42,653 nucleotides of DNA from Candidatus Micrarchaeota archaeon (GTDB lineage: Archaea; B1Sed10-29): assembly GCA_964388265.1 (NCBI GenBank), contig CAYLXZ010000002.1, forward strand, positions 1 to 42,653. The letters run 5' to 3'. This document shows positions 21,001 through 27,000 of this stretch, piece by piece. The position numbers were made by a program. Positions within the stretch are counted from its first letter, which is position 1; each line of letters opens with the position of its first letter.

Positions 21001-24000
21001 AAAAGAAAAAATCATCCCTGCAATAGTGTTCCTCGGAATAGGTATATTCCTAGTTGGTGGAGCGATCACGCAAGGAATACAACTCGATGAGGGAGGGATA
21101 GGAGACCAAATAAATGGTAATGAAGGTAATGAAAGCCAACAGAGTGTATGCGCCGCCTATATTACAGGCGTAGGATGTCCTCACTGTGCTAAGTCAGATC
21201 CAGTCGTCCTAGACCAATCTCTTGAAAAAAATTCGAATCTAGCAATCATCGAATATGAGATATATCAAAACCAAGAGAATGCACCAGTAGCATCATCCTA
21301 CTTTTCCAGCTACGGTGGAAACGGAGTTCCATACCTATTATTCAACGAACAAGAAAGCTTAATCGGAGACAGACCAATAATACAGAACGTAGATTCAAAA
21401 GCAAAAGAAATAGGAGGTAATCCGTGTCCTCTTCCAAAAGGAGACAGTAAAAGCCTAAGAGAACTCAATCTAAACGAATTACCTGGAAAACCCAAAGTGT
21501 TAAAAGGCGAGAAAGTACTCATACGAAAAGGAGAGAAAGAAACCGATTCAGAACTACTCAGAACCATAATAATTGGAGACATAGAAGAAGCTCTTTCAAA
21601 CAAATCATTCGAATCAATTTCCCCTGAACCTGTAGCTCTCTCCGGCCAGAGCCTAAACTTCGAGCACGCAGCCCGATTAAACGGATGGATAGTTCAGTGG
21701 AACGGAGAAGAAGCACAACCTGGAGAACAACCCTTAGTAAAAGAAGAAACAGAACCAACTGAAGAAAAAACCCTACAAGAAGGAGGGATGACACTGGCCA
21801 AAGTGATTACCCTTGGAGCAGCTGACTCCGTTAATCCATGCGCGATAGCCGTCCTCACACTCATGCTTATAGCTATCCTAACCTATAACCCACGTAAGAA
21901 AAGGAAAATTCTCTTAGCTGGACTTGCATTCACCCTATCCGTGTTTGTAATGTATTTAATCTATGGATTAATAATAGTTAAGTTCTTCCAATTAGTTCAA
22001 ACCCTAGCTTCCATAAGGCTACTACTATATCAAGTACTAGGAGCAGGTGCAATAATACTCGGAATCCTAGAGATAAAGGACTACTTTGACTACACTCCAG
22101 GAACCCTAGGAACAGAGATGCCTCTAAGTATAAGGCCAAAGATGAAGAAGATGATAAACGGAGTTACCTCCCCTCTAGGAGCCGCCGTAGTAGGTGTGCT
22201 CGTAACCCTATTCCTACTACCATGTACAATAGGACCATACATAATACTAGGAGGAATGCTATCCACTGTAGCAGAAGTCCTGAATACACTACCTTTACTA
22301 CTGCTTTATAACTTCATATTCGTCCTACCAATGATTGGAATAACCTTAATAGTCTATGGAGGAATAGCTGAAGTTGAAGACGTTTCTGAATGGAGAGAAC
22401 AAAATATAAGGTACCTACACTTGATTGCAGGCGCTTTAATCTTCTGTATTGGCATAGCTATGTTCCTACTATGGATTTAGCTAAATGAAAAGAACAGAGA
22501 AACTAAGAAGTCCAATGATTATCACGAAGTAGCTGAAGTCTATTTTTCTCCCTATCTTAAGCAAGATATCGATGGTTAGATATCCTGCTATGAAGCTAGT
22601 TATGGCAGCTAGTATCATCGTGGGGGTGATTAAGAGTGATTCATTTAGTTTAAGTAGTATCTGTGCTCCTATGACCGCAGGTATCGAGATTATAAAACTC
22701 AGTTCAAGCGCTTTCTCCGGGTTGTATTTTCTTAGGAGTAGCACCGAGGTCGTGAATCCTGATCTGCTTACTCCTGGCAGTATTGCTAGACCTTGAGCTA
22801 TTCCTGTGAGTAACCCGTCCCCAGCTGTTTCTTCAGATTTTTCATTCACTTTCCTTTGAGCGAACTTCATCAGTATCCCTGTCAGTATCAATAGCGCTCC
22901 GATGAACGCGGTGGCCATCTTCCCAGTCAAGGTAAACCGTTCGAGCCCAATTAGGTATAATGGCACTCCTATGAATCCTGTGAACACGGTGGCGGTTATT
23001 ACGAATGTCGTGAGTCGGTTGGATTCTTCCTTAGATCTCGGTCGATAACTCGGAAGATTCATAAGTATGTTCCAGATTTCTTTCCTGAAGTATAGTAATG
23101 CAGCTGCGAGTGTACCTATATGTAGCCATAGTGCGATTGAAACTGCTTCCGATATTTGTTTGCCGAAGAAATTAATCATGACAAGGGAAGTCATTCCTTC
23201 GCTGCTTACTGGTAGCCATTCAGCTGTTCCTTGGATTAAACCTAGTATTAATCCTTGTATTAGGTTCATGTTTCTTCCTCTATCCCTTGTTTAAGGTCTT
23301 CTAGGGCCTTCTTCTTTGCCACTGGATTTCTCTCGTCTTTCACTTCTTTGTAAGTTTCTTCTGTGAACAGATTCTTTATCTCTAGTTCTAGTTGTTCTGC
23401 TGCTTTTTCCACGGCTTTCCATGACTCTGAGTCTGGTTTGAAGTACGCTAGTACTCTATCGTAGTCTTGGTTCTCGAGGTATTTCTTGACTCTTTCCGTG
23501 TTTACTTCTATGTATTTTTCCTTTATCTCTGGTGTTTCTTCCCATTCTGGCCAGTCGTAGGCTGTGAATGGGTAGTTGTCGCATTTGTCTATTGGTATCA
23601 CGCCTGCACTGGATACTACTACTCTGTGGATTTTTTTATCTTTTCCTGTTTCTTTTAGTTTGTTGTGTATTGATTTATGTGTGTTTGATTGGTAGTAGGG
23701 TTTTTTGTAGCTGCAGGGTAGGAGCAGAAGTATTTCTTTCTCTTCTGGTTTCTGGTAGAATTTCTGGAAGTATTCTTGCCAGACCCTGTAGTGTGGGTGT
23801 GTTATCAGGTCTATGGAGCATCCTTTCAAGTCTTCTTTCTTTTCTTCTGGGAATTTGGGTAGGAAGTACATGTTTTCGTATTCTATTGATACTTCGGGGA
23901 GATCCTTCCATTTATCTACCTTGTTGAGGAATTCTTCTCTGTTCAAGGGCTTCCATTTTCCATCTACCCAGTCGTCGAACAGCTTAGATTGGTTGTGTGG

Positions 24001-27000
24001 ATATGTGTTTATTAGTACTATTTCATCGCTCTTGTCAAGCGTGTACTCCATGGATTTCTGGAGTGTGTTTTCCTTTGAGAAGGGGATGTTCACCATTATG
24101 TAGGTCTTGACTTTTCCTCCGTGGCTATGGATCTTCTCTATGGCTTCTTCGTAGTCTTGGAGCCTGAATGGCTTGCCGTATTCCTCCAGGACCTCGTCGT
24201 CAGCTGCTTCTAGACCTATGGCAATGGTGTAGTCCAGGTCATCGAACTCTTGCAGCTTTTCCTCGGTTATGAAGTTAGGTAGTGACTCTACTACTATTTC
24301 TTGTACTCCTTGTTTCTTTAAGTGTTGTATTAGCCATTCTCTGAATTCCTTTGGGAACTGTTTGTTATCTAGGTATGATCCTGATTCGTATACCTTGAGT
24401 TTATCTATTTCTTTGAGGTTAAGTGACTTGACTTTGTTTTTTAGTTTACCTATGTTGACTGGGTATTTCTTTTGTCCCCATCCGCAGGCGTAGCATGTTC
24501 CGTATCTGCATTGACCTGAGTTCAGGATAACTGTCTTGGTGTTGGTCATGGTAGAGACACGGTTCTATATTTGGGATTGGTGGAATAAAAATCGATCAGG
24601 ATATCGATCCATGGTGGATTAGTCCCGTGAAATCGCGTTGGATATCTTGTTTATTATTCCTTTCTTGTCTTTTTCTTGGCTTTCTTTGTTTATTTCTTCT
24701 TTGAGTTCCTGGATCTGTTCTTGGATTTCTTGGGTTCTTGTGGTTTCTTTTTCTTCTTGTTTTTCGAGTTCTCTGAGTTCTTTTTCTAGGGCTTCTAGTT
24801 TGGTTTTTTGTTTTTCGTATTTTTCAAGTGATTTTATTCTTTTTTCTATGTCTTTCTTTATATTTGAGGTTTTTGTGTTGAGCTTATCAGTTATTTCTTT
24901 TTGAAGTTGGTTGATTTTTTCTTCTAGTTCGTTGTAGTCAGCTTTGTTGTTCTCTAGGTCTTCTTGTTTTTCTTTTATGTCTATAGTGGTTTCTTTTAGT
25001 TCTTTTAGTTGCTTGGTTTGGTTTTTGACTTCTTTTTCTAGGTCTTTGAAGTTTTCTTGACCCACTGTAGTTTCTTCTAGTTCAGAGGTTCTTTCTTTTA
25101 GTGAGTTGATGATTTCTTTGGATGGTAGTTCTTCTTTGATTTCTTTTATTTGATTGGATAGTTCTTTGGTTTCTTCTGCTAGTTCGTTGACCTGTTCGAT
25201 TTTGTCTTTCATCTTTTCTTTTACTTCGGTGAATTCGTCTTTTGTTGGAAGGTTCTGGTAGTGTATTTCTATGTCGTTTACTCTTTTCTTCATGTCTTTT
25301 ATTTCTTGGTTTATTTCTTCTTGTTCGTCCGATACTCTTTGAAGGGTTTCTAGCCTGTCTTGTAGTTCGTTGTAGATATCTTCTACTCTGTCGGCGTTTA
25401 CTTCTGATTTGTCTTCGAGCTCTGTCACGGTTTGCAGCATTTTCTGTGCGTCTTCTTTTAATTGTTTGACTGCTTCTAGGTCTCCTATTTCGGCTATTTC
25501 GGATCTTAAGTCTCCTAGGTTGTTTCTGATTTCTGTGATTTTTTGTTCTTTTTCTTGGATTTTGTTCAGGAGGTGTTCGTGTTCTGCTTCTTCTTCTTGG
25601 AGTTTTTCTTCTATTTCTTGGGGTTGTAGGTCTTCTACTAGTTCTTCTGTTCTTTCTGCTTTTGAAACAGTTTCTTGCATGTCTTTCTGTATGTCTTTCA
25701 CGGTTTCTCTTAAGCTACCTATTTGTTCGGATTGTCGGTCATTTCTGGATGAGAGTGTTTCTTGTTGGGATTTGATGACTTCGAGACCTGTTTTTATCTT
25801 TTGGATTTCGGCTTCTAGCTCTGTGTTTGCTTTCTCTGTTTCTTTTTCTTCTTTTTCTACAGGGTCCCAGTCCTCTAGGTTCTCTTCTTTTTCTTTTTCT
25901 GGTGCTTCTGCTAGTAGGTCTTCGATGTCTTTCTCCTTGTTGGACTGTAGTAGTTTCTTTATCTTTTGTTTTATTCCCATCTTCTTGCCTCCATTTTCCT
26001 TATTCTTTCTTTGTTTTTAAGTTTTATTCTAGGTCATCCTTCAGTTCGTCTAGGTAGATGTCTACGAGGTTGAAGCTTCCTTTTCTTATGTTTTTTCTGA
26101 CTAGTGATATTCTGCTTCTGTAGTCGAATACGTCTTCGCCTTCTTCTTCTAGTTTGTCTACTTCTTCCTCTATCTTGTTTACTTCTTCGTTGTATTCTTC
26201 GTATTTGTCTAGTTCTTCATCTGTGAGTCGGTGTGGTGAGTGTTTTAGTGGCCTGAAGTTAACGAAGTATGGATTTCCTTTGTTGTATTCGGAGTTTTGT
26301 ACCATTCCTGTTCCTACGTTTGCTTTTACTATTGATCTTACCATGTCTTTTCCGAATTTGGTCATGTAGAACTCTAGTTCGTCTTGGTTTCTTGTTCTCA
26401 TCTGTATTTTTGTTCCTATGTTGCTTCTTACTTCTTCTGGGAAGTCGCTGATTACTTGGCTGATTAGTATTAGGCCTACGCCCCATTTTCTGAATTCTCT
26501 GGCTCCTCTTTCTAGGTGGTTGAGTCCTTTGCCTGTTCCTCCGAATTTTTCTAGGAGTCTGTGTACTTCATCGAACACTATTACGGTGTCTAGGTGGTCT
26601 CTTTCTTCTAGGTTGGCGTCGAACACTTGTTGTATCATTGAGTTTGTGAATTTCTCTATGTCTTTTTGTTCTAGTTTGTGTAGTGAGAAGACTACTATGC
26701 TTCCTTCTTCTTCTTCGTTCTGTAGCATGTATTGGATGTCTATGTCTTGGTCTGGTGAGTTGATTGTTCTTATGTTTCCTTTGTATGATTGTGTGTCTTC
26801 TTCTGTGAGGTCGAACTCTGGGTAGTAGTTCATCATTTTGTTTGATTCGCAGTCTCTGAGGAATCCTGACCATTGGGCTGTTGGGTCGAGTACTATGATG
26901 TTTTTTCCTTTTTGTAGTGCTTCTTCGACCATTACTTGTGCTGAAACTGTTTTTCCTGCTCCTGTGGCTCCTGCTACCATTGCGTGTGTCATTATTTGAT

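Follow-up and report, generated by a model that had tools for sequence, protein, structure and literature searches.

ArcS and RaSEA (archaeosine synthase alpha and beta), which complete the tRNA base archaeosine, reportedly form an alpha2beta2 complex. In T. kodakarensis, they are obligate partners: free ArcS is inactive, and lysine transfer is carried out only by the ArcS-RaSEA complex (PMC11298593). ArcS accepts preQ0 nucleoside, so its tRNA-binding domains are dispensable for the chemistry, although with the nucleotide its Km reaches a very high 433 uM (PMC11298593); the same paper quotes a report of M. jannaschii ArcS working with NH4+, Asn, or Gln as the donor. According to an excerpt of a bioRxiv preprint (10.1101/2023.04.13.536721), the catalytic core of ArcS is its C1 domain, with the motif PC-X3-KPY-X2-S-X2-H. 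The same excerpt describes ArcS2 proteins (Vibrio phage nt-1, STSV-2) that are reduced to this core, carry no radical-SAM domain, have a partly degenerate motif in nt-1, and act on DNA together with DpdA. As the excerpt has it, E. coli with a phage C1-only ArcS2 made dG+ in the absence of RaSEA, and C1 chemistry is thus not always dependent on a radical partner or on lysine. In crenarchaeal lineages that lack ArcS, the step that follows ArcTGT is filled by QueF-like and Gat-QueC proteins, which have unrelated folds and use ammonium or glutamine.

Here, we describe a gene that joins counterparts of ArcS and RaSEA covalently, found in a stretch of 42,653 nucleotides of contig CAYLXZ010000002.1 from a Candidatus Micrarchaeota archaeon (assembly GCA_964388265.1; hereafter, “the window”). 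Where the known system has two separate chains, roughly 575-615 and 350-360 aa long, this locus encodes a single one (Table 1), which we refer to as “the fusion.” The first-pass annotation had placed the reading frame at exactly these coordinates, and its two Pfam domains were recovered to the residue: Radical_SAM (PF04055) at residues 27-168 with 40.6 bits (gathering threshold, 29.5) and DUF5591 (PF17884) with 70.2 bits (gathering threshold, 26), the latter with identical coordinates in the search of the organism's own genome.

Table 1. Features of the fusion gene and its downstream neighbor; nucleotide positions refer to the window.
Feature	Residues	Position	Strand	Basis
RaSEA-like radical-SAM + ArcS C1 (DUF5591) fusion gene		23266..24549	-	ORF, ATG start, 427 aa + stop
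RaSEA-like radical-SAM partial TIM-barrel domain	1-~232	23854..24549	-	TIGR01210 match, fold matches
C14-x4-C19-x2-C22, presumed radical-SAM [4Fe-4S] ligands	14-22	24484..24510	-	Conservation
Conserved inter-domain bridge (G243, H251)	233-256	23782..23853	-	Conserved columns; pLDDT 80-96
ArcS C1 / DUF5591 domain	257-395	23365..23781	-	Pfam PF17884
PC-X3-KPY-X2-S-X2-H signature (P-C-SYK-K-P-Y-YQ-S-NT-H)	278-291	23677..23718	-	Exact motif match
Second conserved C1 block, YDWPEWEET	331-339	23533..23559	-	Conservation; typical of fused and short stand-alone forms
Helical C-terminal tail, conserved N408	396-427	23269..23364	-	Conservation; model helices 397-403 and 413-426
BacA/UppP gene (downstream context only)		22481..23269	-	Pfam BacA, 181.9 bits

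The C-terminal half carries the catalytic core of ArcS and little else of that protein. The NCBIfam ArcS profiles matched residues 227-399, i.e., from ahead of the bridge (NF040592, 71 bits; NF053620, 72.1 bits; profile positions 251-415 of 575), below their cut-offs of 440 and 600 bits, and BLASTP against a canonical ArcS (P0182) gave 27% identity over 224 aa. The TGT-like N-domain, C2, and PUA of ArcS are missing, as Pfam searches found no TGT, TGT_C2, or PUA domain, and the fusion has no RNA-binding domain. It has the same signature motif as T. kodakarensis C1, in alignment with the equivalent motif of five ArcS-like proteins; across 32 aligned sequences, P278, C279, K283, P284, Y285, and S288 do not vary, and conservation of H291 is at least 90%. 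Among the 120 homologues listed (of 146), all have Cx3KPYx2S and 98 have the full motif. An earlier doubt, that an ArcS piece of ~130 residues may lack the transfer site, is answered by these data, since the piece is the C1 core with its signature. The second block is likewise well kept, with seven of its nine residues invariant (including Y331, D332, W333, E335, E338, and T339) and presence in 114 of the 120 homologues listed (of 146). At its position, canonical ArcS aligns with YDIPVTG, and a YDW..ET-type block recurs in short stand-alone C1 proteins (those aligned were metagenomic ones, not the phage proteins). The only solved relative of this half, AF0587 of Archaeoglobus fulgidus (PDB 2q07), was matched both by sequence (E = 2.2e-8) and by structure (Z = 15.6, rmsd 2.6, 138 aligned residues, 27% identity), the PC..KPY..S..H stretch included; it differs in having a PUA domain next to its DUF5591 and no radical-SAM domain.

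The N-terminal half is nearest to RaSEA. Its top NCBIfam family over residues 3-169 was RaSEA (TIGR01210; 103.6 bits, profile positions 14-193 of 313), with the next-best family at 31.9 bits, yet the score stayed under the equivalog cut-off of 212.15 bits, whereas canonical RaSEA examples reached 273-453 bits. BLASTP against a canonical RaSEA (P0190) gave 28% identity over 207 aa. Alignment of the domain to canonical RaSEA extends through the Y-x-PPW region, beyond which the Cys-rich tail of RaSEA is missing. In three aligned canonical RaSEAs, this tail holds a four-Cys segment (H-N-C-x2-C ... C-x-C) that is absent from the fusion, and each of the 120 homologues listed (of 146) has only zero to two cysteines at residues 150-262; that the segment defines RaSEA is our reading of the alignment rather than a published criterion. 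The presumed cluster ligands are also more tightly spaced, Cx4Cx2C against Cx7-8Cx2C in the three canonical RaSEAs. They are well conserved: the 32-sequence alignment shows no variation at C22 and at least 90% conservation at C14 and C19. Among the 120 homologues listed (of 146), 118 have Cx4Cx2C, the other two starting downstream of the motif position, and 116 have the SAM-site block SGS-x-x-D. Shared with RaSEA are the blocks SGS-x-L-D (SGSFLD), E88 (VES-P), and G112-L-E114 (GLE). Hence, the first-pass description of this half as like RaSEA holds for its radical-SAM domain and not for a whole RaSEA; the radical step may differ if the missing four-Cys segment holds a needed metal site.

An AlphaFold2 model of the whole protein (mean pLDDT 93.3, pTM 0.86) is consistent with both domains forming one compact body. 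VIA-align matched model residues 1-228 to radical-SAM structures, many at Z 12-19 and best to queuine lyase (6p78_A; Z = 18.8, rmsd 3.1, 209 aligned residues; the next two at Z = 16.6 and 16.5), while Foldseek returned Elp3, viperin, and HydE. Queuine lyase, too, breaks a C-N bond, in the side chain of a 7-deazaguanine. With queuine lyase, viperin, MgmA, and Elp3, however, the fusion shares a fold and not thereby a function, since identity is 16% and there is no family-level sequence match.

Profile searches of the source genome (725,682 b in 45 contigs) found a single DUF5591 match and a single TIGR01210 match, and both are the fusion gene. This agrees with the earlier statement that the genome has no separate ArcS, although, with the genome 82% complete, a stand-alone copy of either enzyme could lie in the part not assembled. 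The genome's one TGT-family match, too, is as had been described: a full 564-aa TgtA on another contig, with C1, C2, and PUA domains and 505 bits (cut-off, 350). The fusion is therefore the sole candidate partner for ArcTGT within this genome, in which 20 of the 21 tRNAs detected have A14-G15. Like the ArcS-RaSEA complex, it thus occurs alongside ArcTGT. Synthesis genes for preQ0 were not found, again as first reported: searches of the genome for FolE, MptA/FolE2, and QueD gave nothing, a weak QueC match was a ThiI PP-loop protein, and two weak QueE matches were NrdG2 activases. Downstream, the ATG of the BacA/UppP gene overlaps the TGA of the fusion (ATGA) in the sequence; this neighbor is not conserved, as none of 91 relatives' loci carries BacA.

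We found 146 homologues at E<=1e-5. Of the 120 listed, 117 carry both Pfam domains, with lengths of 374-457 aa and names from Micrarchaeota, Aenigmatarchaeota, Nanoarchaeota, the DPANN group, and one Asgard, in line with the first-pass counts. Among 31 genomes of the organism's own phylum, 24 encode both the fusion and ArcTGT, including all 11 that are at least 90% complete; two have the fusion only (61-62% complete), two ArcTGT only (77-81% complete), and three, all of one genus, neither. In a second DPANN phylum, of which 201 genomes were sampled, 23 have both genes, two the fusion only, four ArcTGT only, and 172 neither. Since these genomes are related, such counts overstate the independence of the co-occurrences. 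The claim that the fusion is the standard form in DPANN is thus overstated, as most genomes of this second phylum (172 of 201) have neither gene and only 25 have the fusion. Nor is the family specific to DPANN: it is common in Thermoproteota, with many members there. A reversed-order protein (P0143) counts as an independent fusion. The gene neighborhood links the two genes as well. Elsewhere, 26 of 80 loci have ArcTGT within 4 kb of the fusion, as a rule adjacent and divergent; the gap is at most 400 bp in 12 loci, where the genes diverge in 10 and run in the same direction, 14 bp apart, in 2. In the second DPANN phylum, 17 of the 23 co-occurring genomes have a divergent pair within 4.2 kb.

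Across 47 genomes with the fusion, no RaSEA scored above the TIGR01210 cut-off and no canonical ArcS was found. Fifteen genomes had a further DUF5591 match that passed the family cut-off, whereas none of the 26 fusion genomes of the organism's own phylum had another DUF5591. Ten of these 15 matches lie in TgtA-length frames (533-567 aa; Thermoproteota), all without the Cx3KPY cysteine, and the four frames scanned are TgtA; the remainder are four short C1 proteins and one second fusion. One further genome (G047) has weak extra DUF5591 matches only, the better of which is inside a 640-aa TgtA. The QueF family model gave no match in the source genome or in 17 Thermoproteota genomes that carry the fusion, but this negative is weak, as QueF-like proteins may escape the model. 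Two Thermoproteota genomes with the fusion have ~446-aa QueC-family frames that are possibly Gat-QueC. A description of the fused form was not found in the literature searched, a set without Yokogawa 2019 and Phillips 2010; as had been noted before, PMC11298593 contains none of the words “fused,” “fusion,” and “DPANN.”

The fusion gene probably encodes a single-chain archaeosine synthase. An unlikely alternative is that archaeosine is made by chemistry unlike the T. kodakarensis route, with another nitrogen donor (ammonium, glutamine, or another amino acid), another role for the radical-SAM half, or both. The donors reported for M. jannaschii ArcS (PMC11298593), the excerpted finding of dG+ from ArcS2 without RaSEA, the second C1 block shared with short stand-alone proteins and not with canonical ArcS, and the missing Cys-rich tail all point that way. 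The near-universal Cys triad and SAM-site block among the homologues listed, however, are hard to explain if radical chemistry is not needed, and RaSEA is far ahead of any other family for this half. Rather improbable is a different target, that is, another 7-deazaguanine derivative as the product, or a free nucleoside or nucleotide, or DNA, in place of tRNA as the substrate. The lack of a PUA or TGT-like domain would fit, as would the use of preQ0 nucleoside by ArcS (PMC11298593), the phage DUF5591 proteins that work on DNA in the preprint excerpt, and a best fold match, queuine lyase, that acts on a free 7-deazaguanine base. But TgtA, a tRNA-type enzyme with a PUA domain, is the genome's only transglycosylase, the close linkage of fusion and TgtA genes points to tRNA, and the very high Km that ArcS shows with the nucleotide speaks against free substrates.

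We also consider it very improbable that only one half is active, as a RaSEA-type subunit whose C1 domain would serve as a docking or substrate-holding module while another protein transfers the amine. The Cys-less DUF5591 domains in TgtA-length frames of 10 Thermoproteota genomes indicate that such domains can be non-catalytic, and four genomes do have an extra short C1 protein; against this, no other DUF5591 was found in the own genome or in any of the phylum's 26 fusion genomes, and the motif Cys, Lys, and Ser are invariant in the fusion. Scarcely credible is a radical-SAM enzyme that has no link to 7-deazaguanines and whose DUF5591 domain does something unrelated: both halves do fall under their equivalog cut-offs and DUF5591 is still formally classed as being of unknown function, but the ArcS signature is intact, and co-occurrence and conserved adjacency with ArcTGT extend across several phyla.

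The single-chain archaeosine synthase put forward in the first-pass annotation thus finds support in sequence, context, and phyletic pattern, shorn of a whole RaSEA half and of its standing as the DPANN standard. In the mechanism we propose, the two catalytic activities, the identity of the donor, the sequence of reactions, and the tRNA substrate are all predicted. ArcTGT, encoded elsewhere in the genome, would place salvaged preQ0 at tRNA G15. The C1 half, via the Cys and Lys of its signature, would then join the amine of an amino acid, most likely lysine if T. kodakarensis ArcS is a guide, to the preQ0-15 nitrile. The radical-SAM half, with SAM and a [4Fe-4S] cluster bound by C14/C19/C22, would cleave the adduct to the formamidine of archaeosine. 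The fusion would replace the ArcS-RaSEA complex, having lost the TGT-like, C2, and PUA domains of ArcS and the Cys-rich tail of RaSEA. Overall, the joining of the two catalytic cores and their tracking of ArcTGT across genomes suggest that this is probably a compact, one-gene archaeosine-finishing step; if true, it would be a one-gene version of the ArcS-RaSEA step that other archaea run as a complex.

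We found that the fusion protein joins two domains that matched their Pfam models over threshold, Radical_SAM at residues 27-168 (40.6 bits) and DUF5591, the C1 domain of ArcS, at residues 257-395 (70.2 bits). Among the NCBIfam models, that of RaSEA (TIGR01210) ranked top for residues 3-169 with 103.6 bits, the next radical-SAM family reaching 31.9 bits, and residues 227-399 matched two ArcS models with 71 and 72.1 bits; the RaSEA score and both ArcS scores lie far under the equivalog cut-offs. A canonical RaSEA (P0190) scores 453 bits on TIGR01210 and a canonical ArcS (P0182) 445.8 bits on the ArcS model NF040592, and the fusion aligned with these two proteins by BLASTP at 28% identity over 207 aa and 27% identity over 224 aa, respectively. 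RNA-binding domains are absent from the chain, and the only relative of solved structure that sequence comparison brought up is AF0587 (2q07), which combines DUF5591 with PUA and has no assigned function. All items that we rechecked from the evidence listed in the first-pass annotation were reproduced, and so were its homologue counts, with 146 proteins at E<=1e-5 and both domains in 117 of the 120 listed. Among the matches listed, most source names were "DUF5591 domain-containing protein" or "radical SAM protein," and one JGI entry was named "archaeosine synthase."

Upstream of the ORF, the 69-nt spacer contains an AT-rich, TATA-like stretch; the genes on that side encode a coiled-coil protein and one of 3789 aa, and at the other end the TGA of the fusion overlaps the ATG of the following BacA/UppP homologue as ATGA. 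The sequencing runs listed were three DNA runs from a single study, one of which contained 0.95 of the sequence words, with no RNA run among them. The BacA and coiled-coil neighbors occurred in none of the 91 relatives' loci, and the window neighborhood offers no functional link for the fusion. The giant 3789-aa ORF itself carries GLUG motifs near its N-terminus and a HerA/DUF87-type ATPase at its C-terminus (residues ~3450-3670), and the window encodes a second GLUG protein. It also holds a toxin-antitoxin-like pair of a HepT-like (HEPN) RNase and an MNT nucleotidyltransferase, flanked by a KsgA-type rRNA dimethylase and a DUF655 gene, as well as a RIO kinase followed by a 395-aa protein that combines a HAD phosphatase with two PNO1/KRR1-type KH domains, an unusual fusion in a ribosome-biogenesis context. 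In a further cluster, three genes encode Nitro_FeMo-Co domains: Two products are small NifX/NifB-C-like proteins, and in the remaining one the domain is fused to a cation-efflux protein. The cluster also includes two P-loop proteins of the MinD/ParA type that carry 4Fe-4S ferredoxin inserts.

Coordinates of the fusion gene and of further features in the window, in the same genome (G000), and in compared loci (L-numbers)
Feature	Sequence	Position	Strand	Remarks
Fusion ORF	window	23266..24549	-	427 aa, ATG start
Second GLUG protein	window	113-2419		768 aa
RIO kinase and HAD-KH protein	window	9607-11692	+
MinD/ParA and Nitro_FeMo-Co cluster	window	15984-19784	-
Giant GLUG ORF	window	26024-37393	-	3789 aa
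HepT/MNT pair	window	38284-39136	-
ThiI_fer + THUMP protein	window	41653-42450	-	265 aa
PP-loop protein	G000 contig 33 (L004)	1448-2014		188 aa, immediately after TYW1
tRNA-Val(CAC)	G000 contig 3	37565-37637		A15
TgtA-like frame with Cys-less C1, Thermoproteota	L099	414-2024	+
TgtA-like frame with Cys-less C1, Thermoproteota	L101	372-1979	+
EamA transporter	L039	3054-3923		nanohaloarchaeal
EamA transporter	L043	3059-3928		nanohaloarchaeal
EamA transporter	L048	2284-3153		nanohaloarchaeal
EamA transporter	L093	2809-3678		nanohaloarchaeal

Judged from an alignment of 32 family members and from motif counts over the 120 listed members, both halves of the fusion are under constraint. A Cx4Cx2C motif near the N-terminus was present in 118 of these 120 fusions, the remaining two gene calls beginning past it, and an SGS-x-x-D block was found in 116, YDWxExxET in 114, and Cx3KPYx2S in all 120. 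The full motif PC-X3-KPY-X2-S-X2-H was retained in 98; across the set, its His was replaced by Trp in 15, Tyr in 2, and Phe in 1, and its Pro by Gln in 4. According to Hutinet et al. (bioRxiv 10.1101/2023.04.13.536721), this motif is the hallmark of the C1 domain specific to ArcS, "the catalytic core." It occupies residues 278-291 of the window protein and aligned with the same stretch in five ArcS-like proteins; this answers the earlier doubt that an ArcS piece of ~130 residues may lack the transfer site, because the site is carried by this very piece. The N-terminal half is an incomplete RaSEA: It could be aligned with all three canonical RaSEAs compared through the barrel, but its cluster loop is shorter (Cx4Cx2C instead of Cx7-8Cx2C) and it is without their C-terminal four-Cys segment (H-N-C-x2-C ... 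C-x-C), with 0 to 2 Cys per protein in residues 150-262 among the 120 fusions.

An AlphaFold2 model built on the same 32-member alignment (mean pLDDT 93.3, pTM 0.86, no segment below 50) fits two domains packed as a single body. For residues 1-228, the top VIA-align match was queuine lyase (6p78_A; Z 18.8, rmsd 3.1, 209 aligned), another radical-SAM enzyme acting on a 7-deazaguanine; this could be chance among small radical-SAM barrels, since the next matches, MgmA and viperin, followed at Z 16.6 and 16.5. Foldseek matched the same residues to Elp3, viperin, and Mmp10. Residues 255-427 matched 2q07 (Z 15.6, rmsd 2.6, 138 aligned, 27% identity), and no ArcS or RaSEA structure was among the Foldseek or VIA-align matches listed.

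The fusion was found together with TgtA, the ArcTGT enzyme, in most genomes of its own phylum (31 species genomes; one family member's contig is labeled Ca. Iainarchaeum). Here, 26 genomes carry the fusion, each with one match in the DUF5591 search, always at the fusion, and 26 carry TgtA; both genes are present in 24, including all 11 genomes that are at least 90% complete. Two genomes have only the fusion (61% and 62% complete), two only TgtA (77% and 81% complete), and three of a single genus have neither (84-89% complete). A protein search tallied 27 genomes, which includes a 24.6-bit match to another radical-SAM gene in G005. Among 201 genomes of a second DPANN phylum, sampled around G040, the fusion occurs in 25 (one truncated at a contig end) and TgtA in 27, with both in 23, only the fusion in 2, only TgtA in 4, and neither in 172. 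This count leaves out an 84-bit match to the N-half that contains three TAA codons in frame, and it includes nine genomes previously reached via the fusion, one being the center by design and the other eight possibly lying outside an even draw. The pattern is one of joint presence or loss of the fusion and TgtA, for which we give no statistic because relatives are not independent. The four genomes with only TgtA (G097, G138, G142, and G165) have short TgtA frames of 462-491 aa and no DUF5591; either another finishing enzyme is used there, or the modification ends at preQ0. The claim that the fusion is standard in DPANN archaea accordingly needs narrowing: In these lineages, ArcTGT usually has the fusion as its partner, but the 172 genomes with neither gene do not bear out the wider statement.

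More widely, a species-genome collection yielded 111 relatives, and 80 loci were retained from these. DPANN labels with the fusion are Iainarchaeum, Micrarchaeota, Aenigmatarchaeota, Nanoarchaeota, Woesearchaeota, Parvarchaeota, Nanohaloarchaea, and Altiarchaeota; Thermoproteota labels are Thermofilaceae, Thermoproteaceae, Desulfurococcales, Acidilobaceae, Thermodiscus, Methanomethylicia, Culexmicrobium, and a "Kor1" bin; and it also occurs in a single Methanosarcinales bin, on a contig of 2.3 kb. A TgtA homologue lay within the 4-kb flank of the fusion in 26 of the 80 loci, 24 times divergent and upstream and twice codirectional with a 14-bp gap, and the gap was at most 400 bp in 12 of the 26; no TgtA homologue was found in the own phylum's 11 shorter loci. 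In the second DPANN phylum, a divergent TgtA-fusion pair within 4.2 kb was seen in 17 of the 23 genomes carrying both. The genes between ArcTGT and the fusion were mixed, with no clear pathway gene except a recurring EamA transporter, which in four nanohaloarchaeal loci is a 290-aa protein encoded immediately upstream of the fusion with ArcTGT beyond. We speculate that it may be a candidate 7-deazaguanine importer where preQ0 must be salvaged.

That the fusion is the only synthase candidate of its genome was borne out by the searches, in which the single DUF5591 match and the single TIGR01210 match both fell on it. Likewise, none of 47 fusion genomes had a RaSEA over the cut-off, and the top TIGR01210 match was always the fusion. 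In 15 of the 47, DUF5591 matched a second time above the family cut-off. In 10 of these, all Thermoproteota (L099-L108), the frame that holds the second match is 533-567 aa long and has a TGT-type N-terminus but no PUA domain, the motif Cys of its C-terminal DUF5591 being changed to Glu or Asp (P-E/D-x3-K/R-P-Y/F/H/C), and the four frames that were scanned are TgtA (518-555 bits). We rejected these ~540-aa proteins as canonical ArcS on the strength of the four scans and of the Cx3KPY cysteine, present in 0 of 10. They look like ArcTGT itself bearing an inactivated C1 domain, possibly a docking module. The other second matches were short stand-alone C1 proteins in four genomes (224-262-aa frames) and, in one, a further fusion copy truncated at a contig end; G047 had two weak extra matches, the better of which (27.1 bits) lies inside a 640-aa TgtA with C2 and PUA domains. 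Given these identities, there is no canonical ArcS among the second copies examined. As to substitutes, the QueF family was not found in 17 Thermoproteota fusion genomes (a weak negative), and 6 of the 17 had QueC-family matches, of which ~446-aa frames in two genomes could be Gat-QueC.

In the assembly that contains the window (725,682 b, 45 contigs, 82% complete), the sole TGT-family gene lies on contig 9 and encodes a TgtA of 564 aa (505 bits versus a cut-off of 350) with C1, C2, and PUA domains. QueF, QueD, FolE, MptA, and a YhhQ-type transporter were not found in this 82% complete genome; a weak QueC match proved to be a 188-aa ThiI PP-loop protein beside TYW1, and two weak QueE matches were NrdG2 activases. 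From the genes found and not found, the pathway looks like ArcTGT plus the fusion, fed by salvaged preQ0, within the limits of 82% completeness. A14-G15 was present in 20 of the 21 tRNAs found by ARAGORN; tRNA-Val(CAC), the only one without G15, has A15 and would thus escape ArcTGT. ThiI itself is seemingly split, its ThiI_fer and THUMP domains being encoded in the window and its PP-loop part on contig 33.

Radical-SAM domains from 16 fusions, 40 stand-alone proteins, and 2 other proteins (58 in all) were compared in a quick maximum-likelihood tree, in which the 16 fusion domains and P0141 fell on one side of a branch with an SH-aLRT of 98. This grouping is compatible with a single fusion origin, and the fusion clade may have arisen once, the tree being unrooted. 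A metagenomic representative of 680 aa, P0143, has the reversed order, with a DUF5591-like stretch at residues 108-205 (23.9 bits) followed by a RaSEA-like one at residues 339-610 (132 bits) that retains the Cys-rich tail of RaSEA, and it groups with a stand-alone RaSEA (99), outside the main fusion clade. Two independent fusions of the C1 and RaSEA modules are a classic sign of functional partnership.

PMC11298593 states that ArcS adds lysine to preQ0-15 and RaSEA turns preQ0-Lys into G+ (archaeosine), that free ArcS is inactive and lysine is transferred by the complex only, that ArcS accepts even the preQ0 nucleoside, and that ArcTGT did not copurify with ArcS. We consider it probable that the fusion is a single-chain enzyme for both of these steps: ArcTGT would make preQ0-tRNA, on which the fusion would then act twice, with lysine as the presumed donor and tRNA as the presumed substrate. 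It seems unlikely that archaeosine is made by the fusion with another donor or by a different radical step; the ArcS of M. jannaschii is reported to use NH4+, Asn, or Gln (quoted in PMC11298593), and a phage ArcS2 yields dG+ without RaSEA (bioRxiv 10.1101/2023.04.13.536721), but the radical-SAM site is conserved in the fusion, against a donor route without cleavage. A different product or substrate we judge quite improbable. That one half only is active is very improbable, a passive C1 being disfavored by the invariant C1 motif and by the lack of any other DUF5591 in the own phylum, and an unrelated function, against which the linkage to TgtA speaks, is hardly credible.

For the probable two-step enzyme, a more specific and still doubtful picture is that the fusion suffices by itself as archaeosine synthase and gains access to tRNA by docking on ArcTGT, not through RNA-binding domains of its own, as might be read from the ArcTGT gene being the conserved divergent neighbor and from the Cys-less C1 on the Thermoproteota ArcTGT. 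If true, a single assembly would perform base exchange, adduct formation, and radical cleavage, and this would be a fourth, so far unlisted G+ route in Crenarchaeota and the main G+ route in DPANN lineages retaining the modification.

The chemistry of the fusion is expected, and partner-enzyme fusions are common. We found no description of it in the literature searched, though earlier archaeosine synthase papers may mention it. As a natural "Rosetta stone," the fusion suggests, independently, that ArcS C1 and RaSEA work as a single unit, and it suggests that the core reaction can do without the TGT-like, C2, and PUA domains of ArcS and the Cys-rich tail of RaSEA. With 427 residues in one chain and a confidently predicted fold, the fusion would be an easier target for structure and mechanism than ArcS-RaSEA with tRNA, structures of which are still needed according to the authors of PMC11298593. 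Several hundred proteins named "DUF5591 domain-containing" or "radical SAM protein" would gain a likely function, which addresses an annotation gap in DPANN archaea and in many Thermoproteota, where only QueF-like and Gat-QueC are listed as ArcS substitutes and the fusion is an unlisted likely route to G+. Together, the fusion and ArcTGT would mark the DPANN lineages that retain archaeosine yet depend on salvaged preQ0.
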